A stretch of 33,875 nt of DNA from an uncultured Lachnospiraceae bacterium (GTDB lineage Bacteria; Bacillota; Clostridia; Lachnospirales; Lachnospiraceae). A program made the translations under genes and the position numbers. The notes beneath the pieces were generated by a model. That model did no database searches. It worked only from the letters and a program-made list of their open reading frames with translations, and was not told where the DNA came from. Below are positions 9,835 to 29,957 of this stretch, piece after piece; the stretch's first letter is position 1; each line of letters starts with the position of its first letter. The stretch spans positions 1 through 33,875 of the forward strand of contig CADBOY010000036.1 of the NCBI GenBank assembly GCA_902796405.1, read 5' to 3'.

Positions 9835-10084
9835 CTCATGCTCCATTTCGTGACAGAACTCAGTTACTGTTGTCTCTGCCGCATACTCGCAGCGGTTCGG
9901 TTGCAGGTGCCAGCGCATCGTACTATAATGAAGTGGCACGGCCGGCCGGTTCCCGGAGAAGGAAAGTCGGAAGGAAACAACAGACTTAGCCAGGTTCTGG
10001 AGCAAACACTATCTTATCCCGTCAGAAAACCGTGGCTGCCGGCTGGGCCGCCCAGGCGGGTCTTCTGGACCTGCCTTTTCTTTT

Positions 10085-10795: not shown

Positions 10796-11193
10796 CCCAT
10801 CGTAACCATCAGGATCAGTCCTATTATCATCAGCACCGCGCCGAAAACGGCAACGCCGGTCAGAATGAAAAACGGTGCCCGTCTCTCGTCACGGTCATCA
10901 TCTTCCCAGTCTGCTGTGGGCATTTCTCTCATCTCTTCCGCCACAGGCATCCTCGGCCGCTCTTCCGCCGCGGGCATCCTTGGCCTCTCTTCCGCCGCAG
11001 GCATCTCCGGCCTCTCTTCCGCCGCTTCAGCGCCGACCTTCACTCCACAGCGCGGACAGAACTTCGTTCCGGGGTCAAGACGTGCTCCACAATTTGTGCA
11101 GAATCTGGGAGTTTCTGCGAATTTTTCCCCACATTCTGCGCAGAATTTCGCGTTATCCTCATTCTCATAACCACAGGAAGGGCATCTTTTCAT
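10792..11193 (-). CDS. Zinc-ribbon membrane protein with a tandem-repeat linker
   Basis: The start is at ATG 11193 (MKRCPSCGYEN), with AGGAGGAG upstream. There are two CxxC...CxxC ribbons (CPSCG..CAECG and CTNCG..CPRCG), four 9-aa repeats and a C-terminal TM helix FFILTGVAVFGAVLMIIGLILMV. Confidence 0.75.
   Translation of the reverse strand: MKRCPSCGYENEDNAKFCAECGEKFAETPRFCTNCGARLDPGTKFCPRCGVKVGAEAAEERPEMPAAEERPRMPAAEERPRMPVAEEMREMPTADWEDDDRDERRAPFFILTGVAVFGAVLMIIGLILMVTMG
10918..11025 (-). repeat. 4 x 27-nt in-frame tandem repeat (AAEERP(E/R)MP units) inside the zinc-ribbon gene
   Basis: The protein repeats are AAEERPEMP, AAEERPRMP, AAEERPRMP and VAEEMREMP. The DNA period is 27 nt. Confidence 0.85.
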
Positions 11194-11292: not shown

Positions 11293-12546
11293 TCACTCTC
11301 TGCGGTAAAGTTCCGCGAGACGGTCAACTGCCTCCTTGGTATTCTCATAGGTGCCAAACGCCGTGATCCGGATAAATCCTTCTCCGTGCGGGCCGAAGCC
11401 GGAGCCCGGAGTGGTCACTACATTGGCATCCTCCAGGAAATGATCGAAGCACTCCCAGCTGTTTCGTCCGCCAGTCGTGCGAAGCCAGATATAGGGCGCG
11501 TCCACACCGCCGAAGACCTCGTAGCCGGCTGCCTGCAGATGTTCACGGATATAGCTCGCATTGCGCATGTAATAGGCAACCTGCTGTCTGGTCTGTGCCT
11601 GCCCCTCCGGAGAATATACCGCTTCGCCGGCCCGCTGCACGATATACGGCGCACCATTGAACTTCGTTCCATGGCGGCGCAGCCACAGCGAATGAAGCTC
11701 TATCTCGCGCTCACCGTCATCCGTCTTCACGCGGCACACCAGGTCATGCGGAACAATCGTCGCACCGAGGCGCGTTCCGGTAAAGCCGGCATTCTTCGAG
11801 AAGGAGCGGATCTCAATGGCGCAGGTTCTCGCGCCGCTGCATTCATAGATGGAATGCGGCACATCCGGCTCCGTGATATATGCTTCATACGCGGCGTCGT
11901 AGATGATGACGCTGCCATGTGCGTTCGCATAATCCACCCACTGCTGCAGTCTCTGACGGGAGAGCGCAGTTCCGGTGGGATTGTTCGGGGAGCAGATGTA
12001 AATCAGGTCCGGAACCTGATCTTCCGGGGGAACCGGAGCGAATCCGTTCTCCTGCGTGCAGGGCAGATAGATCACGCCGTCAAAATATCCTGTATTTTCA
12101 TTGTACTTTCCGGTGCGCCCGGCCATGACATTCGTGTCAAGATAGACCGGATAGACGGGGTCGCAGACCGCCACCTTCGCGTTCGGTCCGAAGATCTCCT
12201 GAATATTGCCGGAATCGCTCTTGGCGCCGTCGGAGATGAAGATCTCATCGTCCGCGATATCACAGCCTCTGGCCGCGAAATCGTGCTCACGCATCTTCTC
12301 GCGCAGGAATTCATATCCATTCTCCGGGCCATAGCCGCGGAATGTCGCCGCGTCACCCATCTCATCGACGGCGCGGTGGAGTGCCTCGATCACAGCCGGG
12401 CAGAGCGGCTGCGTGACATCGCCGATGCCGAGCCGGATGACGTTCCTGTCCGGATGCGCTTCCTGATAGGCTGCCACCTTCTTCGCGATGGTGGAGAACA
12501 GGTAGCTTCCCGGAAGCTTCAGATAATTCTCATTGATGGTAAACAT
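11293..12546 (-). CDS. dapL: LL-diaminopimelate aminotransferase
   Basis: The start is at ATG 12546 (MFTINENYLKLPGSYLFSTIAKKV, a typical DapL N-terminus), with GGAG upstream. The PLP-lysine block is SFSKNAGFTGTRLG. Confidence 0.9.
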   Translation of the reverse strand: MFTINENYLKLPGSYLFSTIAKKVAAYQEAHPDRNVIRLGIGDVTQPLCPAVIEALHRAVDEMGDAATFRGYGPENGYEFLREKMREHDFAARGCDIADDEIFISDGAKSDSGNIQEIFGPNAKVAVCDPVYPVYLDTNVMAGRTGKYNENTGYFDGVIYLPCTQENGFAPVPPEDQVPDLIYICSPNNPTGTALSRQRLQQWVDYANAHGSVIIYDAAYEAYITEPDVPHSIYECSGARTCAIEIRSFSKNAGFTGTRLGATIVPHDLVCRVKTDDGEREIELHSLWLRRHGTKFNGAPYIVQRAGEAVYSPEGQAQTRQQVAYYMRNASYIREHLQAAGYEVFGGVDAPYIWLRTTGGRNSWECFDHFLEDANVVTTPGSGFGPHGEGFIRITAFGTYENTKEAVDRLAELYRRE

Positions 12547-12684
12547 AATGATCTCCATTCCGCCGCCGTCAGCCAGCGGCTCAACTCAACAGGGAAGCGG
12601 CTCTTGCAAGCCGCCATTCTCCCGGTGGTATTCCCGCCGCGCCGGCCTACCGGCCTGCTGCGCAGCAGATACTTCCTCTCTTCA

Positions 12685-14160
12685 TCAGTCCGCGCTCTGC
12701 GGCTTCGCTCCTCCCCCGAGTTCCATTCGCTCCTTGGAATAGACATCCGGGACCTCCGTCGGGTAGATGCCGTCGAAGCAGCCGCAGCAGAAATTCTCCT
12801 TCTTCGATGCATCTCCGCCGGCAGCCAGCAGCTTTGCTGCATCCTCCGACAGATAGCCGAGGGAATCCGCCCCGATGATCTGAGCGATCTCATCCACAGA
12901 ATGATGACATGCGATCAGATTCTCTCTGGAGTCGATATCCGTGCCATAATAGCAGGGATTCAGGAAAGGCGGCGAGGAGATTCGCATATGAACTTCCTTC
13001 GCCCCAGCATCGCGCACCAGGCGGATCAGCCGTGCGGACGTTGTGCCGCGAACAATCGAATCGTCGACAAGAATCACCCGTTTTCCGCGCAGTACACTGC
13101 CGATCGCATTCAGCTTCAGGCGCACGAGATTCACTCTCTCCTGCTGCGTCGGCGCGATGAACGTACGCCCGATGTATTTGTTCTTGATCAGGCCGATGGA
13201 ATAGGGGATCCCGGATTCCCGGGAGTACCCGAGCGCGGCGTCCAGACCGGAATCCGGTACGCCGACTACAATATCCGCATCCACAGGGTGCTCTTTCGCG
13301 AGCGCACGGCCGGCGCCGACGCGGAAATCATGAGCGAAGACCCCGTCAATGCAGGAATCGGGCCTCGAAAAATAGATATATTCAAAGATACAGTGTGAGC
13401 GCTTCTTTACATCGCCGCAGTGACGGCGGTCGGAACGAATTCCGTTCTTGTCGCAGACGATGATCTCACCAGGATCCAGATCCCGCACGAACTCTGCGCC
13501 GACGGCATCGAGTGCGCAGCTCTCGGAAGAGAACACCACGCCGCCATCCGGCAGTTTGCCGTAGCAGAGCGGCCGGAATCCGTGCGGATCCCGGCAGGCA
13601 ATCATCTTCGCGGGGGACATGATCACCAGGGAATAGCTTCCATGGAAGAACGGCATCGAGCGGCTCACCGCCTCCTCGATGGATCCGCACTTCAGTCTCT
13701 GTCTCGTGATGATATAGGCGATGACCTCGGTGTCGCTGGTAGAATGGAAGATACATCCTTCCATCTCAAGCTCCTGACGAAGTGCCAGCGAATTCACGAG
13801 ATTGCCGTTGTGACAGACCGCCAGCTGCCCCTTTACGTGGCGAACTAGCATCGGCTGCGCATTCTCTCTTGTGACGCTGCCGCTCGTCGAATAGCGATCA
13901 TGGCCGATTGCCATCGTTCCGGTTCCCAGCCTGGTCAGCGAATCCCGGTCAAATACTTCATGCACGAGTCCGAGATCCTTGCTGCAGGTAATCACGCGGT
14001 CCTTGTTCACAGCGATTCCGGCGGCCTCCTGGCCGCGGTGCTGCAGCGCCGTCAGTCCGCAGTATACCAGGTGCGCGACATCGCCCTCCTGTGGCAGTCT
14101 GACTCCGAAAACGCCGCACTCCTCATGAAGTTCCGGCTTATCGTCTCTCTCTCCGGTCAT
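12685..14160 (-). CDS. purF: Amidophosphoribosyltransferase (glutamine-PRPP amidotransferase)
   Basis: A propeptide precedes the nucleophile Cys (ECGVFGV). The PRPP loop is VILVDDSIVRGTT, and Fe-S cysteines are present (CIFEY, NPCYYG, CCGCF). GGAGG lies 7 nt before the ATG. Confidence 0.95.
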   Translation of the reverse strand: MTGERDDKPELHEECGVFGVRLPQEGDVAHLVYCGLTALQHRGQEAAGIAVNKDRVITCSKDLGLVHEVFDRDSLTRLGTGTMAIGHDRYSTSGSVTRENAQPMLVRHVKGQLAVCHNGNLVNSLALRQELEMEGCIFHSTSDTEVIAYIITRQRLKCGSIEEAVSRSMPFFHGSYSLVIMSPAKMIACRDPHGFRPLCYGKLPDGGVVFSSESCALDAVGAEFVRDLDPGEIIVCDKNGIRSDRRHCGDVKKRSHCIFEYIYFSRPDSCIDGVFAHDFRVGAGRALAKEHPVDADIVVGVPDSGLDAALGYSRESGIPYSIGLIKNKYIGRTFIAPTQQERVNLVRLKLNAIGSVLRGKRVILVDDSIVRGTTSARLIRLVRDAGAKEVHMRISSPPFLNPCYYGTDIDSRENLIACHHSVDEIAQIIGADSLGYLSEDAAKLLAAGGDASKKENFCCGCFDGIYPTEVPDVYSKERMELGGGAKPQSAD

Positions 14161-14577: not shown

Positions 14578-16248
14578 TCACTGCGGATTTCCGCCTTCTG
14601 CCGGTTCATTCCAGAACAGATCGGCGCGGATCGAAGCAACCTCTTTGCCGTAGAAGAAAAACTCCGCACCGCGGATGTCATCAAAGTAAACCGGCGCTTC
14701 TGCGTTGATCTCCAGGCAGGTGATATTCTTCGCCGTCACAGTGACGGTCTCGGCGAGGCTGCAGTAATGCGCCTCCGGCACCGTCATAAAAATCTTCGGC
14801 GGAGTCTCTTCTCCGTCATACGGCATCACCTGGAACCAGATCGTCTTCACCCCGCCCGGCTCATTCTTCCAGTGCATCTGCAGGAAATGGTGCCGCCGCA
14901 GACCATACTGCAGAAGATAATCCAGAGAATGAATCCTGACGCAGCGGATCTTTCTCTGATATGAGGACAGCGGAAGCACCTGCGCGATGGACTGACTGAC
15001 TCGCCTTTCCAGGGCATCATCTCCGTAAAAATCTGCCTCATGCCGCCTCATGCGGATGGCGAACTGCGCCTGCAGGTAATAGTAGTACGCTCCGTCCGGA
15101 CTTGGCTCCGGGCTGGACACATCCTGTCCGGTTCGAAGCAGATCTCCCTGCCGGACCGCGATATCCGCGAACGCAGAGCGAAATTGCCCATGCCGGATAT
15201 CGCCCAAAGACTTCCGGTACAACTCATGGATCAGGTGCGTGGCAATCTCCGGGCTTTTCACGGTCCCATGCCCGGACAGGAACAAATCCGCCAGCTGATA
15301 GCCGGACTCCGGATTGCCGCCGGCCGCCCCAATGGAGAACATCCGGAACGCCTTCTCATATTCCGGCTCACCGTCATGCACCCGCCCATAGCGGTAGATG
15401 TGTCCCAGGGAATTCGCATAATCCGGGCTGGGCCGGATCTCCATCAGCCGCGTCAGGCAATCATGGGAAGCCTGCCAGTCCGCGTCATACACGGAATTTC
15501 CGCCGTAGCAGGCATATGCCTTCTTCTCCAGCGCCTCGGGGTCCGATCGTTCAACAAGCGCGTCCACTACTTTCCGGTAGATGCACCTGATCCGTGAATC
15601 CGCGGCGGCAATCTTCTCATCGCTTCTCCAGCATGCCAGGAAATGCTTCATCTGGCGCCAGGTCATATCCCGTTCGGTATCCGGCCGATCCCGCTGCTGG
15701 AGGTAAACCTGAATTTCCTCCCGGCATTCCTGAAGCGATACATCGCCGAACTGATCGTACTTCGTGCCCAGCATCCCCCAGACCGTCCGGAATACACTGC
15801 GCGCATCCGGAATGCCATCATCCTCTTCATCCGGGACACCGGGCCGTTCCATCCGGACGTACCGGTAGAGCTCTTCTTCCAGCCCCCAGTACCAGAGTCC
15901 TGCATTCTGATCCTTCGGATTCTCCGGCAGACGACCGAGCGCTGCCGTCAGATCATCCAAAGTCATCGTATACACTTCCGGGCAGTCAATATTTCCATAT
16001 TCCCGGCCGCCGCGCAGCTGCGCATAGGATATCCCGTACCGGCAGAACTGCTTCAGTTTTTCCCGGCTGACCCGCACCGGAGGTACGAATTCCCATGTTC
16101 TTAACGCCACCATGTCCTGCTGCCCGGAGAGCGGTCCATCCACATAGAGGACCTGTGCCTGTTCTCCCCTCACCTCATAGACAATGGCATACTGATACTC
16201 TTCCCCATCTCTGCGGCGAACCCAGTCTCCCGACTCCAGCGCATACAT
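14578..16248 (-). CDS. Sel1-like repeat protein with unassigned N- and C-terminal domains
   Basis: Track ORF 14578..16305. The start is at ATG 16248 (MYALESGDW), with AAGGAG 8 nt upstream. The central segment ANSLGHIYRYGRVHDGEPEYEKAFRMFSIGAAGGNPESGYQLADLFLSGHGTVKS fits the Sel1 repeat consensus. Confidence 0.65.
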   Translation of the reverse strand: MYALESGDWVRRRDGEEYQYAIVYEVRGEQAQVLYVDGPLSGQQDMVALRTWEFVPPVRVSREKLKQFCRYGISYAQLRGGREYGNIDCPEVYTMTLDDLTAALGRLPENPKDQNAGLWYWGLEEELYRYVRMERPGVPDEEDDGIPDARSVFRTVWGMLGTKYDQFGDVSLQECREEIQVYLQQRDRPDTERDMTWRQMKHFLACWRSDEKIAAADSRIRCIYRKVVDALVERSDPEALEKKAYACYGGNSVYDADWQASHDCLTRLMEIRPSPDYANSLGHIYRYGRVHDGEPEYEKAFRMFSIGAAGGNPESGYQLADLFLSGHGTVKSPEIATHLIHELYRKSLGDIRHGQFRSAFADIAVRQGDLLRTGQDVSSPEPSPDGAYYYYLQAQFAIRMRRHEADFYGDDALERRVSQSIAQVLPLSSYQRKIRCVRIHSLDYLLQYGLRRHHFLQMHWKNEPGGVKTIWFQVMPYDGEETPPKIFMTVPEAHYCSLAETVTVTAKNITCLEINAEAPVYFDDIRGAEFFFYGKEVASIRADLFWNEPAEGGNPQ

Positions 16249-16313
16249 CACCACCACTCCTTCCCGAGAACCCCCGCTCTCAGCAGCCTGAAAACCACTG
16301 GACATACGTAGTC

Positions 16314-19697: not shown

Positions 19698-20702
19698 TTA
19701 GGCAGAAAAGTCTCCCGCCTGGTTCATGCTGATACGGAGCAGTCTTCGCATGTCTTCCGGGAGCGGTGCCGTCAGGCTGATGGGAGCACCGGTAAATGGC
19801 TGCCGGAAAGTCAGGGATACGGCGTGGAGTGCGGCTCGCCCAATCAGGTCACTGGTGCCGCCGTACATCACATCCCCGAGCAGCGGATGCCCGATCGCCG
19901 CCATATGCGCGCGGATCTGGTGCATCCGTCCGGTATCGATGCGGACACGGATAAAAGTGACTCCGGAAGACGAAGCAGCTTCAGCGGGCTGCTGCAGTTC
20001 TGGCTCCGGGCAGGCACGGAAGAGGGCCTCTTCTTCCTCTGGAGAGAGAACCTGGTAATGCGTCACCGCGTATTTTCCTTCGTCGGAGATGATGACGCGG
20101 CAGACATTATCCGGATCCCGGTGGATCGGCAGATCGATGGTTCCCGTCTTCTGCGGGAGCGTACCGGTAACGGCAGCAATATACTCTTTGCGCAGGAGTT
20201 TCCGCTCCCGCTGGCGGACCAGCCGTCCTGCGGCAACCTGGTTTTTCGAGAACAGAATCACGCCGGAGGTCGCCGCATCCAGACGGCCAGCGGCACGCAC
20301 GCGAATCATCTCCTGCTTCTGGCTGAAGTAATAGAGAAGCATATTGACCAGAGTGTCATCCTGGTGCATGCCGGCCGGATGAGTGGGAACACCAGCGGCC
20401 TTGTTCACGGCGATCAGATCCTCGTCCTCATAGAGGATATCCAGAGGTGCCGGATTCAGCGCAATTGGTTTTCCTTCTTTCGCGGAAGACTCAAGCTCCA
20501 CCTCTACTATATCTCCGGGAACAAGCCGGTACGTGACATATTTCTTCTCCCCGTTCACGAGGATGCCGCGCGGGCGGTACTTGAGCTGGCGGATCTGCCG
20601 CCTGGTAAGGCCTGCCGTCAGGCGGAGATAATCACCGAGGATCACTGGAGCCGTCGCCATCAGGCGCAGAGTACGCTGATCCGGTCTGCTGTTTTCTGTC
20701 AT
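19698..20702 (-). CDS. RluA-family (RluD-like) 23S rRNA pseudouridine synthase
   Basis: There is an S4-like N-terminus (LTRRQIRQLKYRPRGILVNGE), the catalytic block GRLDAATSGVILFSKN, and TGRMHQIRAH. It has a roughly 25-aa acidic/Pro insert before the last block. The start overlaps the ispD stop (ATGA). Confidence 0.85.
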   Translation of the reverse strand: MTENSRPDQRTLRLMATAPVILGDYLRLTAGLTRRQIRQLKYRPRGILVNGEKKYVTYRLVPGDIVEVELESSAKEGKPIALNPAPLDILYEDEDLIAVNKAAGVPTHPAGMHQDDTLVNMLLYYFSQKQEMIRVRAAGRLDAATSGVILFSKNQVAAGRLVRQRERKLLRKEYIAAVTGTLPQKTGTIDLPIHRDPDNVCRVIISDEGKYAVTHYQVLSPEEEEALFRACPEPELQQPAEAASSSGVTFIRVRIDTGRMHQIRAHMAAIGHPLLGDVMYGGTSDLIGRAALHAVSLTFRQPFTGAPISLTAPLPEDMRRLLRISMNQAGDFSA

Positions 20703-21523
20703 GCGCCCTGCCCCCTCCCGGACGCCTGCAGGAAGCTTTCCGCAAGGATCCGGTCTTCCGGTGTGGTCACCTTGAGATTCGTGTAATCCGCTTCCACCAG
20801 CCGGACTGGTACTCCAGCAAGCTCCAGCAGGCTGCAGTCATCCGTAATTCCGGGCGATGTACCGTATTTCCGGTGTGCCGCAAGAAGGACTTCCCGGTGA
20901 AAGCACTGCGGGGTCTGCACGATCCAGGTATGCGCGCGATCCGTCGTCTGCGTCACGAGACCGCGGTCATCGCTGATCTTGATGGTATCCTTGGAGCGGA
21001 CTGCGGCAGTACAGCCGGCAAATTCCGACATCGTTTCGATACAGCGGGTCACGTAGGAATCCCGGATCATCGGGCGGGCTCCATCCTGGATCAGGACGAT
21101 GTCCCCGTTCGCCGCGTTCAGCCCATGCAGGACCGACTCCTGTCTTGTGCTCCCTCCGGAAGTCATCCGAACCGGGACGCGAGAGGCATCCGCTGCCTTC
21201 TCTGCATCCGCCTGTTCTCCGGTTTTCGTCCGGACCGGAATGCGTAACGCATCCGCTGCCTTCTCTGCATCCGCCTGCTCTCCGGCTCCCGTCCGGACCG
21301 AATGACAGACCGCATCCACGATCGCCTGCGCTTTTGCCCATTCGCTGTCTTTCACTACCAGAATGCATTCATCCACATAGGAATTCCGCACGAGCACCTC
21401 GAGGCTGTACTGCAGAATCGGCTTACCGCAGATCCTGACGTAAACCTTGTTTTCCGCTGCGCCGAACCGCGTCCCGCTTCCGCCCGCCAGCAGAATGGCG
21501 GTCACCTTCCGGTTCTGAAACAT
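20699..21523 (-). CDS. ispD: 2-C-methyl-D-erythritol 4-phosphate cytidylyltransferase
   Basis: Motifs seen are LLAGGSGTRFG, NKVYV, GGSTRQESV and VLIQDGARP. It carries an internal 42-aa tandem-repeat insert. Confidence 0.9.
   Translation of the reverse strand: MFQNRKVTAILLAGGSGTRFGAAENKVYVRICGKPILQYSLEVLVRNSYVDECILVVKDSEWAKAQAIVDAVCHSVRTGAGEQADAEKAADALRIPVRTKTGEQADAEKAADASRVPVRMTSGGSTRQESVLHGLNAANGDIVLIQDGARPMIRDSYVTRCIETMSEFAGCTAAVRSKDTIKISDDRGLVTQTTDRAHTWIVQTPQCFHREVLLAAHRKYGTSPGITDDCSLLELAGVPVRLVEADYTNLKVTTPEDRILAESFLQASGRGQGA
21173..21298 (-). repeat. 2 x 63-nt in-frame tandem repeat inside ispD
   Basis: The units are 21173-21235 and 21236-21298, with 54/63 nt identical by hand alignment. 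They encode VRTGAGEQADAEKAADALRIP and VRTKTGEQADAEKAADASRVP. Confidence 0.9.
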
Positions 21524-21530
21524 GCTCTGA

Positions 21531-22022
21531 TCATCCCTTCACCGTGAAATCCGCCGTCTTTCCCCGTGCCGCGCGGATCAGATCATCCGGAGCAAGCTCC
21601 AGCTGAAGGCCGAGTGCACCGCCGCTGACAAAGACCGTGTCCAGCTCACAGATGGACTCCTCGAAGAAAGTCGGGAACTGTTTCTTCATTCCAATGGAAG
21701 TGCAGCCGCCCCGGACATATCCGGTGAGCGGCGTCAGCTCCTTCAACGGAAGCATCTCAACCGATTTTTCGCCGGCGACCTTCGCCGCTTTCTTGAAATC
21801 AATCTCGTCATCGATCGGAAGGACGAATACATAGTGCTGCCGGCTCTTTCCAACCGTCACCAGTGTCTTGTACACCCTGGCATGATCCTGACCCAGGCGG
21901 TCAGCCACCTCCGCGCCATCCGTGAACTCCGTGCACTCATAGGTGTGCGGGGTGTACGCAATCTTCGCGCGGTCCAGCTGACGCATGGCATTGGTCTTGA
22001 TCTCTTTTTCTTTCTTTGACAT
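21531..22022 (-). CDS. ybaK: Cys-tRNA(Pro)/Cys-tRNA(Cys) deacylase, YbaK/EbsC family
   Basis: At 163 aa it has TNAMRQLDRAKIAY and the GGCTSIGMKK block typical of YbaK. AAGGAAG SD. It sits 12 nt after ispE and 7 nt before ispD. Confidence 0.85.
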   Translation of the reverse strand: MSKKEKEIKTNAMRQLDRAKIAYTPHTYECTEFTDGAEVADRLGQDHARVYKTLVTVGKSRQHYVFVLPIDDEIDFKKAAKVAGEKSVEMLPLKELTPLTGYVRGGCTSIGMKKQFPTFFEESICELDTVFVSGGALGLQLELAPDDLIRAARGKTADFTVKG

Positions 22023-22034
22023 ATCTTCTTCCTT

Positions 22035-22901
22035 TTATTCCCATTCGTTCAGCGTCTCACAGCGGAACACGCGGCAGCCCGGCAGGTTCCGCAGTGCCAC
22101 AAAGGCAAGGTCCCGCTGCTGCGCCCCGTCAAAGAGGCCAAACACGGCGGATCCGGATCCGGTCATCCGGCTGCCGAGCGCTCCAGCCCGGCGCAGCCGC
22201 GTAAGCAGGTCCTGGATCCGGCCCTGCTCCGGCACCACAGTTTCAAACTCATTGGTCAGGCAGGCCGCAGCGGCTGCGGCATCATCCGCCTCCAGCGCTG
22301 CGACCATCTGCTGCGTCTTCCTGTCCTCCGGCTTTGTGCCAGCCGCGCCCCCGTCGATCTTCGCGTACATCTCTCCCGTTCGGAAGGAGAGATCCGGTTT
22401 GATCACCAGCAGCGGAAAATGGGCCTGCGTCCGAATATTCGTCAGCTGCTCCCCAATGCCGCGGCCCAGGGTCGCGTGGCGGAACAGGCAGGCGGGGACA
22501 TCCGCTCCAAGTCTGGCTCCGATTTCAATCAGCCCCGACGGGCCAAGGCCCAGTCCGAAATGCCGATCCATAAAGGCGAGAAGTGCGGCACAATCGGTAC
22601 TTCCGCCGCCCATACCTGCTCCGGACGGGATGTGCTTGTCCAGACGGACGTCGAGGCCGCGCACCTGTCCCGGGAACCGCTCAGCCAGTGCGCGGTACCC
22701 CCGGCAGACGAGATTATCCTCGGTTTCCAAAGCAGAAACCGAGCAGGAAAAGTTCAGCCGGTCCTCGACATTATCTGTGATCCAAAGCTCATCCGCCAGC
22801 GTCACCGGCTGAAAGATCAGCTCAAGATCATGATAGCCATCCGGCCGGCGGCCGGTCACATACAGGGTCAGATTGATCTTTGCCGGAGCCTCAATCTTCA
22901 T
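22035..22901 (-). CDS. ispE: 4-diphosphocytidyl-2-C-methyl-D-erythritol kinase
   Basis: The track ORF 22035..23297 is trimmed to ATG 22901 (MKIEAPAKINLTLYVTGRRPDGYHDL). The GHMP motif is IPSGAGMGGGSTDCAA. Confidence 0.9.
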   Translation of the reverse strand: MKIEAPAKINLTLYVTGRRPDGYHDLELIFQPVTLADELWITDNVEDRLNFSCSVSALETEDNLVCRGYRALAERFPGQVRGLDVRLDKHIPSGAGMGGGSTDCAALLAFMDRHFGLGLGPSGLIEIGARLGADVPACLFRHATLGRGIGEQLTNIRTQAHFPLLVIKPDLSFRTGEMYAKIDGGAAGTKPEDRKTQQMVAALEADDAAAAAACLTNEFETVVPEQGRIQDLLTRLRRAGALGSRMTGSGSAVFGLFDGAQQRDLAFVALRNLPGCRVFRCETLNEWE

Positions 22902-23011
22902 ATGGCTTTCCCTTTCTCCGGCTTTCGCCGGTTCGTCCGCTCCGCACGCCAGCGGCTGACAGAGCGCAGCCGGCAGACAGCCAGGCCCCGCTCTCCGGCA
23001 TTTCCGCCGGC

Positions 23012-23536
23012 TTACCTTTCCTCCTGCTCTGCCGTCAGCACTGCGAATACGCTGACGCCCAGGCCCTGTCCGAATGAAGTGAGACCTTCTCCGGTGGTCG
23101 CGGTGATGCCCACGCTGCCGGCAGTCAGCCCCATCAGCGCGCCGATGGTTTCCCGCATCTCTTCGACCTTCGGCGCGATCTTCGGGCGTGCGGCTTCGAT
23201 CGTGATGGACAGATGAACCGGATGGCAGCCCATCGCGGCAAGATCGGCCATGGCCACCTTCAGATACTCCCGGCTGTCCGTGATGCCGCTCCGGCACATC
23301 TGATCTGCCACAGAGCCAAGGATATTCCGGCAGGTAATCCCTGAGACGGCATTGGTCACGGCATGCAGTACAACGTCTCCATCACTGTTGGCGTCAAATG
23401 CGGGCGCCGTTTCAAACGGCACGCCGCCCAGCACGCAGGCTTTGTCTCTGCTCTGCTCCCCAGCCGGGCATTTGCTGCTTTGCTCTGGCGGATTAGCGAA
23501 ACGGTGACTGTCCTGTCCAATGGCAACCTTAATCAT
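23012..23536 (-). CDS. ispF: Divergent 2-C-methyl-D-erythritol 2,4-cyclodiphosphate synthase (IspF/YgbB fold)
   Basis: The start is at ATG 23536 (MIKVAIGQDSHRF), overlapping the aroK stop by 8 nt. Blocks IGQDSH, SDGDVVLHA and ATTGEGLTSFGQGLGV align to IspF, but with substitutions and an insert (see findings). Confidence 0.7.
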   Translation of the reverse strand: MIKVAIGQDSHRFANPPEQSSKCPAGEQSRDKACVLGGVPFETAPAFDANSDGDVVLHAVTNAVSGITCRNILGSVADQMCRSGITDSREYLKVAMADLAAMGCHPVHLSITIEAARPKIAPKVEEMRETIGALMGLTAGSVGITATTGEGLTSFGQGLGVSVFAVLTAEQEER

Positions 23537-24053
23537 GGCTTTCCTCCCCGGCGGCATACCGGTATACCTCCGCCGCGATATCCTCCGCGCTTCGGCCGTC
23601 CGTCTCCACCACGGCATCTGCTGCCGCCAGATAAGCCGGCCTCCGCTCAGCCATTAGCTCCGCGATATATTCGGTGTTCATATGACCGTTCAGAAGCGGG
23701 CGGCTGGTACTCCCCTTTACCCGCTCCAAGATGGTATCCGGCTGGGCGGTGAGAAGGATCACGATACCGTTCTTCTTCATCAGTTCCACGTTCTCACGGC
23801 GCAGCGCCATGCCCCCGCCGCAGGATATCACGGTATCTCCGGTCAGCGCGAGCTCCCGCAGAAGTTCTGTCTCCATGCAGCGGAAAGCCTCTTCTCCCTG
23901 CCTGGAAAAGATCTCCCGGACCGGCATGCCTTCCCGCTCTTCAATCCGACGGTCTGTCTCCGTATGCCGGTAGTGATACTTCTTCTCCAGTGCTCCTGCG
24001 ATGGTGGTCTTTCCGCTTCCCATGAAACCGATCAGATAGATATTCTTCGCCAT
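23529..24053 (-). CDS. aroK: Shikimate kinase
   Basis: The start is at ATG 24053 (MAKNIYLIGFMGSGKTT), with GAGG 7 nt upstream. Walker A is present, along with TETDRRIEEREGMPVREIF and ISCGGG blocks. Confidence 0.9.
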   Translation of the reverse strand: MAKNIYLIGFMGSGKTTIAGALEKKYHYRHTETDRRIEEREGMPVREIFSRQGEEAFRCMETELLRELALTGDTVISCGGGMALRRENVELMKKNGIVILLTAQPDTILERVKGSTSRPLLNGHMNTEYIAELMAERRPAYLAAADAVVETDGRSAEDIAAEVYRYAAGEESHD

Positions 24054-24070
24054 AGCCATTCCTCGCCGCA

Positions 24071-24892
24071 TCAGATTCCGCCCAAGCTGATCCGGTATTC
24101 ATTTTTCCATCGCCGCACCAGCTCGCGCAGACCGCATGCGCGGCGGATATTGTCTTTATTCATCCATACAGCGGCATCCGCCGCATGTCCTTCACTTCTC
24201 GCCTGCTCCCTGATCCGGCTGAAGCTGGCGTCCCACTCTGCCAGAGCTGACGGCTCGATATCCGCGAAGATCTCATCCGGAATCTTCACGTCCGGAGCAA
24301 TCCGGCGAATCTGCCAGAGGGATTCCCTCACCTCCGGCTGATGGAGATCTTTTGCCGCTTCCACCAGACAGTCTGCTGCCTCCTGCCAGAGATACTGCCG
24401 GGCCGCTGTCATCCCCAGGCTGTACCAGAGCAGGCCGCGGAATCCAGGATCCTTCCGCTCGGGATAATTCCCCTCAAGCAGACTTCCAAAAGCGTGCTCC
24501 GCCGCAGAATACCTTCCGCGGGCAAACAGCATATCCGCTTTCTTCAGGAGACGCCGTCCCGGCGACATCCGGGTGAGCGCGTTCATCTCCTCCCGGAATT
24601 CATAGAGTTCATCCCCATCATAGTAGTGGATATCCTGCAGAATCACAAGGAGCAGCTCCGACAGCTCCGCCTGATCCGCCCATTTGCGCAGCTTCTTCTC
24701 GAGGTTCTCCATTCCCAGACCGCTGCCGATGAAACGGTAGAGCCGCTCCCCCAGGAAGTCCTCCCCGATCAGCGGCGCATTGTGATAGATGTAGTAGCTG
24801 AGTTCCTCACCGGTGTACAGGGAGATCCCCAGCTCTTCCACATAATAAGGCTCGGCAGCCTGCTGACTGCGGCAGAGCAGCATCCCACTCAT
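24071..24892 (-). CDS. Uncharacterised 273-aa helical (TPR-like) protein, third gene of the module
   Basis: The start is at ATG 24892 (MSGMLLCRSQ), with AAGGA upstream. Helical-repeat-like segments include KKADMLFARGRYSAAEHAFGSLLEG and LWYSLGMTAARQYLWQEAADCLVEAAKD. No catalytic motif was recognised. Confidence 0.6.
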   Translation of the reverse strand: MSGMLLCRSQQAAEPYYVEELGISLYTGEELSYYIYHNAPLIGEDFLGERLYRFIGSGLGMENLEKKLRKWADQAELSELLLVILQDIHYYDGDELYEFREEMNALTRMSPGRRLLKKADMLFARGRYSAAEHAFGSLLEGNYPERKDPGFRGLLWYSLGMTAARQYLWQEAADCLVEAAKDLHQPEVRESLWQIRRIAPDVKIPDEIFADIEPSALAEWDASFSRIREQARSEGHAADAAVWMNKDNIRRACGLRELVRRWKNEYRISLGGI

Positions 24893-24933
24893 GGTGTTCC
24901 TTTCCGGCCGCCGCGCGGCAAGCGCGGCCACTC

Positions 24934-26199
24934 TTACGACAATAAGAAATCCTTACGGATTGTTTTTCCCGAAGACATGAACAGTTCGCCGAATCCCAGG
25001 TCGCGCACGCGGACCGTCATGCTGTTCTCCGCGTTAAAAGCGACAATGACCTCGATGCGTGTTGTCTTGTTCGGACGACGCGGAAACTCGTCCAGATTCA
25101 CGCGCACCTTGTCGGTTCTGGGACTGCTGGCCGGCTGAATCTGAAATTCCAGCGTATCGGTTCCGTCGGGAATCAGCTCAACGGAGGATCTGGCTTCATA
25201 CCAGTTGGTTCCTGCTTCCGCGAGCACCACTTTCTCACTGCGCCCGCCCCATCTCGCATTGACGCTGACAGTTGATTCAATCCTCCCCTCGCAGAGGAAG
25301 GTGAACGGATAAGCGGAAGTTTCCCGAAGCTGATCCGCGGCGGCGCAGGCCGCGCCGCTGGCGAATACATGCTGTCCTGCGAATACCTTTCTCTTCTGGC
25401 AGACATAGGTGAGAAAATCCGGCGCCCAGTCCGTCGTCACGAATCCGCGCCCGGTCAGAAAAACCGAAGAGAAAACCTTGCGCGCAAGAAGCCGCCTGGC
25501 GCACGACACCAGAATCAGGTCCCCCATGTGACGGCCGGACTCCGTATCGAGCACAGACAGGTCAAACCCATCTTCCTGCTTCTCATGCCAGGCTTCCGCG
25601 ATCTGAGGCCGGCGTCCGCGGATCACCCGCATCTCATAGTAGTGAAGCCCCTCTTCCGTCAGATCAAACATACAGCAGGCATTGGCCCAGACATCCCGCT
25701 GCTGACTCAGCACATAGAAGAGAAAGGTCTCCGCATGTGTCATGATATGCACGCAGCCGCGCGGAACACCGCACCGGCCGGCGATCTCAACCAGAAGATC
25801 CGCAAAGGATCCTTCCAGAGACTGAACGGTGAATACCAGACTCTCAACGCCGTCGCCGCCGAAGCGCTCTCTGGTCATCTTCATCAGCTCATTCACAAAG
25901 CGGTAGAGCAGCTCCGAGGCCGTATACTTGACCCCCTCAATGGTGGCACTTCCGTCGCGGCGGGCCAGCTTGATGAGCTTGTCCACCATGACGCCTTCAT
26001 TCAGGAGAGCGCGCCGGTAAGCCTCCTCTCCCACATACCAGACATCCTCTGTCTTCTTCTTGCAGATGACACTCGAGATCAGGCAGGACGATTCGTCCTC
26101 CGTCACAGTGAGCGCCTCAGCCGTCTCTGTTCCGGGATTCCAGCAGCTGACCTGACTGTAGTCATCGCCGAGATCAATCCCCATGATCAGTCCTGCCAT
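24934..26199 (-). CDS. Divergent Hsp70/actin-fold ATPase paralogue lacking the helical lid
   Basis: The start is at ATG 26199 (MAGLIMGIDLGDDYSQVS), preceded by a G-rich SD. An alternative ATG at 26229 overlaps the upstream stop. Phosphate-1-like GIDLGDDYS, phosphate-2-like CCMFDLTEEGLHYYEM and adenosine-like VFLTGRG are present. The C-terminus RIEVIVAFNAENSMTVRVRDLGFGE resembles the DnaK beta-subdomain IEVTFDIDANGIL.V.A.D..TG. Confidence 0.65.
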   Translation of the reverse strand: MAGLIMGIDLGDDYSQVSCWNPGTETAEALTVTEDESSCLISSVICKKKTEDVWYVGEEAYRRALLNEGVMVDKLIKLARRDGSATIEGVKYTASELLYRFVNELMKMTRERFGGDGVESLVFTVQSLEGSFADLLVEIAGRCGVPRGCVHIMTHAETFLFYVLSQQRDVWANACCMFDLTEEGLHYYEMRVIRGRRPQIAEAWHEKQEDGFDLSVLDTESGRHMGDLILVSCARRLLARKVFSSVFLTGRGFVTTDWAPDFLTYVCQKRKVFAGQHVFASGAACAAADQLRETSAYPFTFLCEGRIESTVSVNARWGGRSEKVVLAEAGTNWYEARSSVELIPDGTDTLEFQIQPASSPRTDKVRVNLDEFPRRPNKTTRIEVIVAFNAENSMTVRVRDLGFGELFMSSGKTIRKDFLLS

Positions 26200-26221
26200 G
26201 GAACCGCCCCCCCTTTCTCCC

Positions 26222-29200
26222 TCATTCATGTTCCGGCAGACGGAACAGCGCCGCCGCCAGGGATTCGTGACAGGCGTACTCCACGGCGTCATCCTGCCAG
26301 TCCTGAACGCGGCCGCCGGTCTTCGCCTGCAGCCGGTTCAGCTCACCGTAACGGGTGTGATCCTCTTCCGGAGAAATCTCTCCGCGAAGGTCTCCCTCAC
26401 GCATCACTTCTTCGCCGCAGAGGATGCGGTAATGAAGCGCATCTCCCGCGAAAAGAAGCACCGGTTTTACATAGATTCCGTGCCAGACCTCCGGCATCCG
26501 AAGGCGCAGCGATGACGGCTTCTCTCCGTCCTTTTTCTCCATCTCAATCTCCACGGAAAGCCCCGGCTGGCCGCAGTATTCCGCGAATTCCCGGCAGCGG
26601 ATCTCTTCCGGAATCCGGATTTTCCCGGCAAAGTCTTTCATCCAGGGGAATATATATCCTCTGCGGAGCAGCAGGGGAAGCAGACGCTCCGCCATCTTCC
26701 GCTGACCCCCGGTCAGAGAGTCTGCTTCCGTGAATTTCTTCATCAGCGCGAGTACGCAGACCTCCGGGACATTCTCCTTCTCCGACTCCAGCATATCCAT
26801 GACGGACTGGAACAGATCCCCGGGCACCGGCTCGCCCTTCTCGAAGCAGGCACTGCAGCGGACAACCACATAGGCCTTGATCAGCAGAGCATTCTTCCCG
26901 CCCTGCTTCCTGTAAATCCGGCAGACTTCATCGATCCCGCTGCTGCTGCACGAGAACAGCATCTGCGCCAGCAGGCGCTCCGCCATATCGCCGGAGTCCA
27001 CTCCATTCTTCTCGGCACAGAGCAGGATCGGCACCATATCCGAGCTGGCGCCGTTGTAATGAGCACAGAGATATTCCAGGATCAGATCGCTGAACTGCTT
27101 CTTCTCAAACAGCCAGCAGCACATATCAAGAAGCAGCTCATCCTTCGCGAACAGCTTAGACTGAATGGCTTCCCCCGCCAGACGCAGAATTTCCTTCGGC
27201 GGCAGCGCCCGGAAATCACAGTGTCCGGCCAGAACTCCGGCTTCACTGTAATGCCCGATGCGGATCAGAATCTCAAGCAGAGCAGCCTTTCTCTCTCCCG
27301 TCAGATTCTGGTACTGCACGCAGGTCAGGACATCTTCTTCCCGCGGATCCTCCTGAGCAATGACGGCATCCACGATGGCATCGGTGAGAATCTGACGATA
27401 CTGGGGATGAATCTCCCGCTCCGTCTGCTCCCGGCGAAGAGTGCGCAGATCCGCTTCGCTCTTATTCTGCTTCCTGAGAACCGCGCTGCAGTCAGCCAGC
27501 CGGAGCATACTGCTCCTCGTCCCTGCTTCGCGGCACCGAGCAAGCAATGCATCCGTATGGCGAAAGACGCGGCGAGCCGTAACATCTGCCGCGTACCTCC
27601 TGCCATCTCCACCGGCCAGAAGCAGGCGGCAGGAATCCGTAAAGATCGGGATACAGGCCTTTCCTCCCGTGATCTTCACCTGAAATTCATCGCGAAGCTC
27701 GCCATAGACCGCGATGACATCCGTGAATCCATCCTCCGGAATGTCCAGCTCACAGGTGGCCAGAAGATCCGGCAGAATCTTCGACATTCTCGCATCGACG
27801 TCTGCCAGCTCGAGCACTTCTTCACAGATCATCGCCAGATCAGCATCGATCTGCCCCGCCAGAACGCTTTTTACTGCAAAATCATGCATCTGCTCATGGT
27901 AGGACTGCATGACCGGTTCATCATCCCGCCAGCAGGTCAGAATATTGCGGTACAGCTTCTCCCGGGAGTCCGGGTCCTGCGGACTGTTGTATCCGAAATA
28001 CAGCACAATAGCGCGGGGCAGCGGCTCCGTCCGGTCCGCCGGCACGGAAGCCAGGTAGGAATCGAAGAGTCTGGTCAGGCGGATGTCCCGCTCGACTCCC
28101 TTCGCGTACCACTCAAATGCGGCTTCATCCCGGCGGCCGCTCTTGATCAGAACGGCGCAGATGGCTCCCAGAATCTCATCTCTGGGATACGCCGAATAAA
28201 GCAGCGTGAGAACCCGCAGAAACGGCGTCAGGGCAGCGCGGCTTCGCGCGGCAAGACCGGCGGCATAGACCGCCGTCTCCTCTTCCACCAGGCTATGTCT
28301 TGCACCAAACAGCAGCACACGGTATTCGAAATCACCGATATACCGGATGATATCCGGGTGGCGGTTGTACACGCGCATAGCCTCCAGATAGAGAAACGGG
28401 CTGGAATAGCCTCCACGGCAGAACTCGACCATCCGGCCCAGCACTTCCCGCGGCCGGTCCGCCGCTCCCTCATCGAGATGGAGCATCAGAAGGAAGCCGA
28501 ACAAAGTCTGTCTTCCCTCGTCATTGTATCGGCGGAGCGTCCGGATCAGCTGTTCCTTCTGTTCCCAGCTGCCGCTCGTCTTCGCCTGCAGATAGAGGTA
28601 TGCGCAGTAGGCGTCCGGATCCTCCCGGCGCCCGGCTGAGATCTCGCGCTCCGCGTCCTTGAGGATCATCTCGGTGAGCTCGGTCTCGCCCTTCCAGAAA
28701 CTGATGGCTCCCCGCAGCAGTTTCTGACGGGGCATCGGCTCATCGTCGCCCACCGTCTCGTCCCAGACAAGCTCCAGGTAATCGACCGTCTCCCGGTTCT
28801 GCGCATTTTCCTTCAGCACCGCAAGAAGCGTCTTCATCAGCTCGAGTTCATTCTTCTTTCGGCGCAGGCGACGCTTTGCCGGCGGCGTAATGTCCGCATG
28901 GCGGCGCGCTTCCACCTCCTGGCTCCCGCGAAAGAATGGTGTCGTCACCGTGATGCGCGCATAGTTTCTGCCCCCGTGCAGTCTGTCGTCGTGGATGACA
29001 AAGGGAATCTTCAGGGTATTGCCTTTAAAATCCGCGCCCGTCCACATCTCCCGGGGAAGAGAGAGGAATTCCGCATCCGAGCGGACCTGCAGCTGAAGCT
29101 GGCCCCATCCGCTCCTGGTGATGGTAATACTGCCTCCGACGTCACTTCCCTCTGTGACAAAGGAGCCCGCCGACTCGCTGACGGCAAGGCGGACTCTCTC

Positions 29201-29758
29201 CTTCGCACCGGCAGCGATCAGAAATTCCTCTGCCGCGCCGGTGCGTGAGGCCGCGCGGCACAGGCCGTCATAAACGGCCCGGCAGGACATATCGTCCATG
29301 AACGACAGATTCAGGAAATCCGCAGAGCCGAAGAGCGCTTCTGCTTCAGCCGGCCGGTCCTGCAGCAGCTGAGAGAAATCCTCCAGCGTCTGTATCGAAC
29401 CGGCGCGTCCGCTGCCGCTCTTTCTGACATGGAAGTGAAAGGGAATGGCCGTCTCTCCGCCATTGTATACCAGACGGAATGCCCCATCCAGAGAAGTGCC
29501 CGGCTCCAGGTCCTCCGCATGTACCTCATAGACAATGTCCGCCGTGATTCCGGCGAAACTGTTCTGAAGCAGAATCACCCGGCTGTCATTGGAATAGATC
29601 AGTCCTCTCAGTCCAGCCCCACTGCTCCCGATGCGAAGATCTCCCCGGTAATTCTGTCCGCCGATGATGGTCTCCTCGATTTCCGGTGTGAGAAGCTCCA
29701 GTACTGGCATGTCCGCATATATGTCTCCGGCAGCAAGCTGGCGTATTCTCTCTTTCAC
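26222..29758 (-). CDS. Uncharacterised 1178-aa cytoplasmic protein (beta-rich N-terminal roughly 300 aa, then long helical-repeat region)
   Basis: Track ORF 26222..29860. GTG 29758 (VKERIRQLAAG) is preferred because GGAGG lies 7 nt upstream, whereas the upstream ATGs lack an SD. No TM helix, signal peptide, P-loop or nuclease motif was seen. Confidence 0.7.
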   Translation of the reverse strand: MKERIRQLAAGDIYADMPVLELLTPEIEETIIGGQNYRGDLRIGSSGAGLRGLIYSNDSRVILLQNSFAGITADIVYEVHAEDLEPGTSLDGAFRLVYNGGETAIPFHFHVRKSGSGRAGSIQTLEDFSQLLQDRPAEAEALFGSADFLNLSFMDDMSCRAVYDGLCRAASRTGAAEEFLIAAGAKERVRLAVSESAGSFVTEGSDVGGSITITRSGWGQLQLQVRSDAEFLSLPREMWTGADFKGNTLKIPFVIHDDRLHGGRNYARITVTTPFFRGSQEVEARRHADITPPAKRRLRRKKNELELMKTLLAVLKENAQNRETVDYLELVWDETVGDDEPMPRQKLLRGAISFWKGETELTEMILKDAEREISAGRREDPDAYCAYLYLQAKTSGSWEQKEQLIRTLRRYNDEGRQTLFGFLLMLHLDEGAADRPREVLGRMVEFCRGGYSSPFLYLEAMRVYNRHPDIIRYIGDFEYRVLLFGARHSLVEEETAVYAAGLAARSRAALTPFLRVLTLLYSAYPRDEILGAICAVLIKSGRRDEAAFEWYAKGVERDIRLTRLFDSYLASVPADRTEPLPRAIVLYFGYNSPQDPDSREKLYRNILTCWRDDEPVMQSYHEQMHDFAVKSVLAGQIDADLAMICEEVLELADVDARMSKILPDLLATCELDIPEDGFTDVIAVYGELRDEFQVKITGGKACIPIFTDSCRLLLAGGDGRRYAADVTARRVFRHTDALLARCREAGTRSSMLRLADCSAVLRKQNKSEADLRTLRREQTEREIHPQYRQILTDAIVDAVIAQEDPREEDVLTCVQYQNLTGERKAALLEILIRIGHYSEAGVLAGHCDFRALPPKEILRLAGEAIQSKLFAKDELLLDMCCWLFEKKQFSDLILEYLCAHYNGASSDMVPILLCAEKNGVDSGDMAERLLAQMLFSCSSSGIDEVCRIYRKQGGKNALLIKAYVVVRCSACFEKGEPVPGDLFQSVMDMLESEKENVPEVCVLALMKKFTEADSLTGGQRKMAERLLPLLLRRGYIFPWMKDFAGKIRIPEEIRCREFAEYCGQPGLSVEIEMEKKDGEKPSSLRLRMPEVWHGIYVKPVLLFAGDALHYRILCGEEVMREGDLRGEISPEEDHTRYGELNRLQAKTGGRVQDWQDDAVEYACHESLAAALFRLPEHE

Positions 29759-29957
29759 GGTTTCCCCTCCCTGCGTCCACGGACATGCACCCTTCGCCCG
29801 CATCACAAGACGTATTAAGCCAATCGCTTCGCAGCTGCGCTGTCCCCGCGATTGGCACATCTATGCTAACACAATTCATGGCAAATTTCCATAAGATCAA
29901 GGCCGGGCCCCGGCTCCGGAAGCGCAGAGTGCAGACACCGGATATCCCTTACCGGGT

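Follow-up and report, generated by a model that had tools for sequence, protein, structure and literature searches.

A conserved three-gene module of Lachnospiraceae encodes a giant Ig/TPR scaffold-like protein, a lid-less Hsp70 derivative and a TPR protein

The DNA analyzed here is a contig of 33,875 nucleotides (CADBOY010000036.1, GenBank assembly GCA_902796405.1) from an uncultured Lachnospiraceae bacterium; we refer to the whole of it as the window. Three adjacent genes of the window encode the proteins that we call P1, P2 and P3, and an earlier, sequence-only reading had singled them out as a module. Structure prediction, fold searches and the comparison of related loci showed that P2 is an Hsp70 derivative with a degenerate ATPase site, that P1 combines immunoglobulin (Ig)/ASH-like beta-sandwiches with tetratricopeptide repeat (TPR)-type solenoids, and that the three genes stay together throughout the lineages in which we found them. 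With moderate confidence, we propose that the trio is an operon-like unit and that its products would assemble, in Lachnospiraceae only, into a stable cytoplasmic complex without enzymatic activity. P1 would be its platform, P2 a non-cycling clamp or adaptor and P3 a TPR adaptor bound to P2, with a fourth protein, P4, as the membrane tie in many lineages.

The evidence begins with P2. Residues 121-418 match the Pfam family DUF5716_C (PF18980) with 303 bits (E=2e-90; cut-off 34.7). The match to the Hsp70 model PF00012 is confined to its N-terminal part and reaches 12.7 bits, under the cut-off of 20.6, and the NCBIfam DnaK model TIGR02350 gives 15.9 bits against a cut-off of 822. A single-sequence phmmer comparison with DnaK yielded E~1e-3, a hmmsearch with the family profile E~2e-2, and hhalign of that profile against E. 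coli DnaK covered 62 columns at 3% probability. As this sequence-only link to Hsp70 was too weak to decide the origin of P2, we used structure prediction and fold search. The AlphaFold2 model, built with 72 homologues, has a pLDDT of 93.3 and a pTM of 0.90. The best 50 Foldseek matches listed from the PDB were all two-domain Hsp70s, aligned over about 510-560 columns; among them were DnaK (4ani_C, E=2.6e-20; 7krv_A, TMq 0.60), BiP, Hsc70, Sse1 and Ssz1 of the ribosome-associated complex (RAC; 6sr6, 7x3k), and none was MreB, ParM, FtsA or actin.

The modeled chain ends at residue 421, right after its last strand (413-419), and the helical lid of the substrate-binding domain (SBD-alpha) is absent. 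This bears out the earlier description of P2 as a lid-less Hsp70 paralogue. Global fits favor the states in which the SBD is docked (7krv_A, rmsd 8.4; docked range 8-10) over the undocked ADP states (range 16-21; 2kho 16.3, 4ani_C 20.5), and together with the pTM this suggests that P2 is a rigid, docked body. At the sequence level HMMER aligns residues 356-404 with strands beta7-beta8 of the DnaK SBD, and the motifs recognizable against DnaK lie there and at the N terminus (GIDLG.., P.RP...IEV.. and D.G.G). The SBD also holds the most invariant motifs of the P2 family, AGxNWYE, PxRPNKTTR and DxGFG.

The nucleotide-binding domain (NBD) of P2 departs from DnaK at the residues of the ATPase site. 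The correspondence between the two proteins was taken from HMMER alignments at the N terminus and set by eye elsewhere. GIDLGDDYS in P2 stands for GIDLGTTNS in DnaK, and VGEEAYRRA for VGQPAKRQA. In a census of 132 family representatives, the equivalents of T11/T12 are D/N/E and D/E, the equivalent of K70 is Y, V, I or L and seldom K, and the phosphate-2 Gly-Gly-Gly is absent across the family. With respect to the DnaK ATPase residues (T11/T12, K70, E171 and D194-GGG-T199), P2 retains only the equivalents of D8, E171 and D194; the degeneracy of its phosphate motifs, first noted on the single sequence, is a property of the whole family. The positions that vary least in the census are non-catalytic (W54, G57, A60, W333, R375, R381 and the DxGFG at the end of the SBD), which points to selection away from the active site, on other surfaces of the protein. 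Such a pattern of invariance is the signature of a pseudo-enzyme. A search for the usual Hsp70 partners, covering the module only, detected no DnaJ/J domain or GrpE domain in P1 or P3 (Pfam) or in P4 of related lineages.

P2 is an Hsp70 by fold and not by sequence threshold, catalytic residues, lid or co-chaperones. Because the likeness is confined to the fold, we regard it as an Hsp70 derivative and not as a usual Hsp70 chaperone. In our proposal it would be non-cycling and catalytically dead, the NBD core and the peptide-binding sandwich being packed rigidly against each other. Most likely it would not be an ATP-driven foldase but would clamp peptides statically or act as an adaptor, because it has lost the hydrolysis residues and the lid, lobe IIB appears to be largely gone, and no J-domain or exchange-factor partner accompanies it.

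To survey the synteny of the module, one genome per GTDB species was scanned with the P2 family alignment, which resulted in 80 loci, all from Lachnospiraceae or from unclassified Clostridia/Clostridiales. The order and orientation P1-P2-P3 are kept in 80/80 loci (tblastn), while P2 identity falls from 67% to 25%; the only loci in which tblastn missed P3 were L010, where the contig ends, and L076, which is very divergent. The earlier expectation that the trio co-occurs in other genomes is thereby borne out in every recovered locus. Median gaps are 27 nt between P1 and P2 (83 loci) and 22 nt between P2 and P3 (82 loci). The shared arrangement is far beyond chance. An exhaustive hidden Markov model search, run over 1.84 billion representatives clustered at 50% identity, recovered 1538 P2 relatives at E<=1e-3, 596 of them at E<=1e-30; the named genera with members of the family are Butyrivibrio, Lachnoanaerobaculum, Lacrimispora, Fusibacillus, Cuneatibacter, Hominifimenecus, Waltera, Eisenbergiella and Acetatifactor.

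Among the best 150 P2 representatives, five are single-chain fusions of P2 and P3, 708-727 aa long (P0235, P0280, P0287, P0299 and P0337). Their C-terminal halves match P3 of the window with E=1e-8 to 5e-20 and carry both its N-terminal and its C-terminal motifs. The five are mutually very divergent and represent at least five lineages, and since one cluster contains several full-length members that are independent of one another and were assembled separately, the fusions are not assembly artefacts. These natural fusions independently support a physical association of P2 and P3 and are the strongest evidence beyond synteny that the products work together. Between the last P2 strand and the P3 'h-I/L-L-C' stretch lie 13-20 mostly acidic residues, a geometry compatible with the P3 stretch adding to the P2 beta-sandwich or lying in it.

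P3 itself consists of a conserved N-terminal domain (residues 1-100), a TPR block (residues ~102-191) and a helical C-terminal region ending in WK.EYR, as seen in an alignment of 26 sequences. The N-terminal domain is new; it contains a hydrophobic stretch G-x-L-I-L-C followed by PYYVEELG..Y..EELSYYI (same alignment). Neither Pfam nor NCBIfam gave a match above cut-off for P3, single Pfam TPR models staying at 16.2 bits against a cut-off of 27, and several P3 homologues have precomputed TPR_1, TPR_2 or TPR_8 matches. The family profile matched consensus TPR proteins in the PDB over residues 113-191 (E=1.6e-19 to 6e-26) and, over residues 102-191, the natural TPR domains of FKBP51/52, Tah1, Sti1/Hop, PP5 and CHIP (E=1e-4 to 5e-2), as well as SPINDLY and Tom70. 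The TPR-like character ascribed to the whole protein in the sequence-only reading holds for this block. We propose that P3 binds P2 directly. Its N-terminal hydrophobic strand could extend or occupy the P2 sandwich, much as the Zuo1 N terminus does on Ssz1, and the TPR block would provide the connection to P1 or a client protein.

The same evidence bears on the alternative that P2 is an active, if unusual, Hsp70 which folds, assembles or remodels P1 or other clients by ATP-driven cycles, with P3 as its TPR co-chaperone. P2 does have the NBD and SBD-beta fold of an Hsp70, its acidic core residues D9, E157 and D179 are largely retained, and the natural proteins closest to the P3 TPR block are the Hsp70/Hsp90 co-chaperones named above. 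Against this, the K70 equivalent is variable, the T11/T12 equivalents are acidic and the phosphate-2 glycines are gone family-wide, and in the model the lid is missing and lobe IIB appears to be so. The module brings no J-domain or GrpE-type partner, although such partners could be encoded elsewhere in the genome. Carboxylate-clamp TPR co-chaperones bind the free EEVD-type C terminus of a chaperone; P2 ends in ...RKDFLLS, its relatives in related non-acidic tails, and in the P2-P3 fusions this end is not free. The co-chaperone matches of P3 are weak and may only mirror a consensus-like TPR sequence, and we treat their flavor as a lead only. The specialised ATP-driven chaperone, one of two guesses in the earlier reading, is disfavored by the lost catalytic residues, the absent partners and the missing IIB lobe, and we consider it unlikely.

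P1, the largest protein of the module, matches both Pfam models of the DUF5717 set (PF18984 + PF18983), DUF5717_N over residues 1-870 with 686.1 bits (E=8e-206) and DUF5717 over residues 873-1172 with 194.5 bits (E=3e-57), in both cases above the gathering cut-off of 25 bits and with full-length profile coverage. The family labels DUF5716/DUF5717, suggested in the sequence-only reading, were therefore correct: P1 is DUF5717_N plus DUF5717 and P2 is DUF5716_C. The AlphaFold2 model of P1 (21 sequences, pLDDT 86.4) contains four beta-sandwiches, Ig/ASH-like in fold, and a pair of TPR-like solenoids (Table 1). An earlier layout, a beta-rich N-terminal third followed by about 850 residues of helical repeats, did not hold as stated, as the model interleaves the four sandwiches with helical repeats at residues 292-666 and 736-1043. 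In Foldseek the N-terminal sandwiches resemble ASH/MSP/Ig-like domains (E 3e-6 to 1e-3), namely hydin-type proteins of the ciliary central pair (7sqc/9ijj), the SPD-2 domain of CEP192 (9fh8), 2qsv and titin Ig. The solenoids resemble the TPR scaffolds Ski3 (9g8r_B/4buj_B), Naa15 (5nnp_A), Ctr9 (7dkh_I) and IFT-A (8fgw_D). Since all TM-scores are <=0.17, this likeness is generic and designates no specific structural relative. No enzymatic domain was detectable in P1 by Pfam or fold search, and the fold matches were all scaffold proteins; the absence of a recognisable enzymatic motif and the scaffold-like nature, both asserted from the sequence, agree with the model. We infer that P1 serves as the platform, its sandwiches and solenoids offering protein-binding surfaces.

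P1, P2 and P3 of the window lack transmembrane (TM) segments and signal peptides, as had been anticipated: the highest 19-residue Kyte-Doolittle mean is <=1.25, compared with 2.68 for a membrane-protein control. In 20/25 distant loci (L059-L083) P3 is followed, at a median gap of 15 nt, by a fourth co-directional gene encoding P4 (for example L071:12074-13264, L080:12140-13300 and L081:10829-11998, and 17 further loci). P4 has about 390 aa, with two central TM helices flanked by cytoplasmic coiled-coil regions. Profile searches of Pfam, NCBIfam and the PDB found no relatives of P4, only coiled-coil noise. A metagenome scan seeded with P4 gave 80 loci, and P2 and P3 lie directly upstream in all 56 of the 56 that have room upstream. 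By tblastn, neither the window nor the regions flanking the module in the 58 closer loci contain P4. In many other Lachnospiraceae P4 would tether the assembly to the membrane. A 290-aa plus-strand open reading frame (ORF) after P3 (L075:12157-13029; tblastn match L077:12019-12855) at first resembled another candidate for the fourth position. Its composition is atypical and in L077 it overlaps a minus-strand ORF (L077:12010-12828), so that we regard it as probably spurious, an antisense frame.

A cytoskeleton-like or lattice system, the second guess of the earlier reading, would have the actin-fold P2, or P1 together with the coiled-coil P4, polymerise for shape, division or envelope. P2 belongs to the ASKHA (acetate and sugar kinases/Hsc70/actin) fold, the repeat and Ig-like modules of P1 are typical of structural assemblies, and the P4 of relatives is a membrane-anchored coiled-coil protein. 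However, the best structural matches of P2 are Hsp70s including their SBD and not MreB, ParM, FtsA or actin, the nucleotide motifs that underlie actin-like polymer dynamics are degenerate, and no division or shape genes are conserved nearby. We found no specific support for such a system and judge it quite improbable.

The flanking genes differ between clades. In closer clades the module sits between rarA, on its upstream side, and aroK or ispF, on its downstream side, and in distant clades the flanks are unrelated (aminotransferase, GntR regulator, ABC transporter, solute-binding proteins). In one abundant gut clade (L081-L083, 12057-13156), cotJA-cotJB-cotJC come directly after the four-gene module. 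The P3 homologue of this clade, P0190, has 626 member sequences in its cluster, found on 419 contigs and in 855 collection blocks. Because they vary in this manner between rarA/aroK/ispF, aminotransferase/ABC transporter/GntR and cotJ, the flanking genes were rejected as a clue to function. A sporulation-associated module would have the cotJ genes in its favor, as well as a SpoIID-like gene upstream in L071, but the cotJ adjacency occurs in one clade only, and the SpoIID-like gene lies four genes away and is encoded on the other strand. The neighbors in the window are rarA, aroK and ispDEF, and the P2 family is present in Butyrivibrio, a genus not known as spore-forming, so that we give this explanation little credence.

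It is scarcely credible that the module serves in anti-phage defence or conflict, with an Hsp70-like NTPase at its core. Defence islands commonly pair large repeat proteins with unusual NTPase-fold proteins, but PADLOC gave no match for P1 or P2 and a single insignificant one for P3 (E=0.011), and Pfam revealed no effector domain. The module also keeps a fixed place among housekeeping genes, and from species to species P1, P2 and P3 lose identity in step with rarA, which indicates vertical inheritance.

We return to the proposed stable, non-catalytic complex. Gene structure, folds, the loss of motifs, synteny and the fusions are direct results of the analysis; that P1 takes part, that P2 is a static clamp, that P4 ties the assembly to the membrane and that it has any given cellular function are proposals. 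Several points weigh against the complex. Synteny is the one line of evidence that places P1 in it, and the occupation of the P2 sandwich by the P3 N-terminal strand as a pseudo-substrate is conjecture. Nucleotide binding by P2, unlike hydrolysis, may still be possible, given that the acidic ASKHA core (D9, E157, D179) and the glycines G250, G252 and G282 are mostly retained among the 132 representatives. Lobe IIB appears to be cut to about one helix (214-238), as read in the model from secondary-structure order and length. Membrane tethering may not apply here, because the lineage of the window is one without P4 at this locus. Finally, the evidence points to no particular cellular process.

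A bolder form of the proposal, which we advance tentatively and with some doubt, is that of a mega-complex in the cytoplasm, lineage-specific and often tethered to the membrane, in which a fossilised Hsp70 would serve as a permanent clamp in a 1200-residue Ig/TPR platform, a genuinely new bacterial machine. If true, this would be a bacterial counterpart of the RAC, Ski and NatA platforms, and it would organise an envelope, division, secretion or translation-linked process for which no machinery is described in other bacteria.

The features of the module are collected in Table 1. The three genes are co-directional and tightly packed between rarA and aroK, on the minus strand, with ORFs as read in the first inspection of the window. 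The gaps of 22 nt and 41 nt were likewise as reported; the 8-nt overlap given as the alternative to the former arises from an alternative P2 start. P1 starts with GTG at 29758, behind the Shine-Dalgarno sequence GGAGGGG at 29764-29770. A longer ORF of 1212 aa was rejected as the P1 gene, because P1 homologues share the N terminus MKERI in the family alignment and begin there. In a scan for promoters and terminators the module showed no clear promoter, and a weak hairpin behind rarA was the only other signal.

Table 1. Coordinates of the module genes, their spacers and the predicted domains of P1 and P2 in the window (aa, residues of the respective protein)
Feature	Position	Strand	Description	Basis
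P1	26222-29758	minus	1178 aa, DUF5717 scaffold protein	ORF + Pfam
P1 N-terminal region	28901-29701	minus	beta-sandwich 1 (aa 20-112), helical insert (aa 125-183), beta-sandwich 2 (aa 191-286)	DSSP
P1 alpha-solenoid 1	27761-28885	minus	aa 292-666, TPR-like helical hairpins	DSSP
P1 inserted beta-sandwich 3	27569-27757	minus	aa 668-730	DSSP
P1 alpha-solenoid 2	26630-27553	minus	aa 736-1043, same Foldseek class as solenoid 1	DSSP
P1 C-terminal part	26246-26590	minus	beta-sandwich 4 (aa 1057-1126) and two terminal helices (aa 1136-1171), inside Pfam DUF5717	DSSP
P1-P2 spacer	26200-26221	minus	22 nt, G-rich ribosome-binding site inside	sequence
P2	24934-26199	minus	421 aa, DUF5716 protein, Hsp70-derived, two domains, no lid	ORF + Pfam
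P2 NBD remnant	25315-26199	minus	aa 1-295, ~85 residues shorter than the DnaK NBD, ATPase motifs degenerate	DSSP + DnaK alignments
P2 SBD beta-sandwich	24937-25302	minus	aa 300-421, all-beta at 300-419, no lid after it	DSSP
P2-P3 spacer	24893-24933	minus	41 nt, AAGGA ahead of the P3 ATG	sequence
P3	24071-24892	minus	273 aa	ORF + ribosome-binding site

Upstream of the trio, rarA was identified by its MgsA_C/AAA domains (MgsA_C E=2e-72), and downstream aroK by SKI (E=1e-44; both Pfam). Co-directional with the trio, the string aroK, ispF, ispE, ybaK and ispD follows on the minus strand (20699-24071), so that three genes of the methylerythritol phosphate (MEP) pathway lie directly downstream of the module: ispD at 20699-21523, ispE at 22035-22901 and ispF at ~23012-23536. 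At its stop codon P3 overlaps the longest aroK ORF by 1 nt (TGATG), and a better-placed aroK start (MAKNIYLIG) is found 17 nt downstream. The longest ispF ORF (23012-23617) is too long at its 5' end and shares 89 nt with the 3' end of aroK; a start near 23536 is suggested because Pfam and tblastn matches begin near residue 21-30. For ispE, within 22035-23297, the 420-aa GTG ORF is an artefact and the 288-aa form agrees with the homologues. Four more sizeable ORFs of the window have no Pfam match at E<=1e-6: 8734-9918 (394 aa), 10424-11170 (248 aa), 11440-13398 (652 aa) and 14578-16305 (575 aa). Over positions 1-33000 the GC skew of the plus strand is negative nearly throughout, most genes are on the minus strand and the GC content is ~52-62%; skew and gene orientation fit a leading-strand role of the minus strand.

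The earlier statement that no function is described for the trio stood up to our searches, in which matches were limited to DUF families. A literature search returned no relevant paper on DUF5716/DUF5717, on Hsp70-like proteins in Lachnospiraceae or on family-specific core genes, NCBIfam gave no informative match for P1, P2, P3 or P4, and no paper, defence-system model or solved structure was found that explains the module. The genes themselves are not new, because their DUF families are already in Pfam. Apparently undescribed so far are the descent of DUF5716 from Hsp70 and its pseudo-enzyme nature, the layout of domains in DUF5717, the families of P3 and P4, the P2-P3 fusions and the strict linkage of the genes as a module.

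Few gut bacteria of humans and animals are as abundant and as relevant to health as the Lachnospiraceae, and their cell biology is almost unexplored. A module of ~5.7 kb that carries no enzymatic domain and occurs in all 80 loci and in about a thousand sequence clusters probably marks a cellular machine specific to the family. P2 also represents a clear bacterial case of an Hsp70 that lost its ATPase motifs and, in our proposal, was turned into a structural subunit, a route so far documented mainly for the eukaryotic Ssz1.

Among known systems, Ssz1 of RAC is the closest functional analogue. Ssz1 is a lid-less Hsp70 that binds ATP and does not hydrolyse it, and its SBD-beta is completed by N-terminal strands and a pseudo-substrate motif of its partner (PMC7083937). 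Like P2, it is an Hsp70 derivative that lacks the SBD-alpha lid, is non-hydrolysing and stands outside the canonical cycle (6sr6, 7x3k), and it is the obligate partner of another protein. That partner, Zuo1, is a J-domain protein serving a second, canonical ribosomal Hsp70, whereas the module described here has no J domain. Ssz1 moreover binds ATP with a full-size NBD, whereas the NBD of P2 is shorter by the ~85 residues listed in Table 1 and has acidic phosphate loops. RAC is ribosome-associated, and nothing links P2 to ribosomes. Canonical DnaK/Hsp70 proteins (PF00012; 4ani, 7krv, 4b9q) are structurally closest to P2 and share the NBD-linker-SBD-beta architecture with it, but they have ~610-640 aa against 421 aa, and P2 is without the lid, the IIB lobe and the conserved catalytic Lys, Thr-Thr and Gly-Gly-Gly, with no DnaJ or GrpE partner in its operon. 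In its helical parts, for which they are the best Foldseek class, P1 recalls Ski3, Naa15, Ctr9 and IFT-A as a long non-catalytic TPR-type solenoid protein of the kind that organises multi-subunit complexes; at an identity of ~10% and with the low TM-scores given above this likeness is generic and not homology, and those proteins lack the four interleaved Ig/ASH-like sandwiches of P1. By sequence P2 and P1 are full-length, high-scoring members of the Pfam families DUF5716 and DUF5717 (PF18980, PF18984 and PF18983), whose entries give no function.

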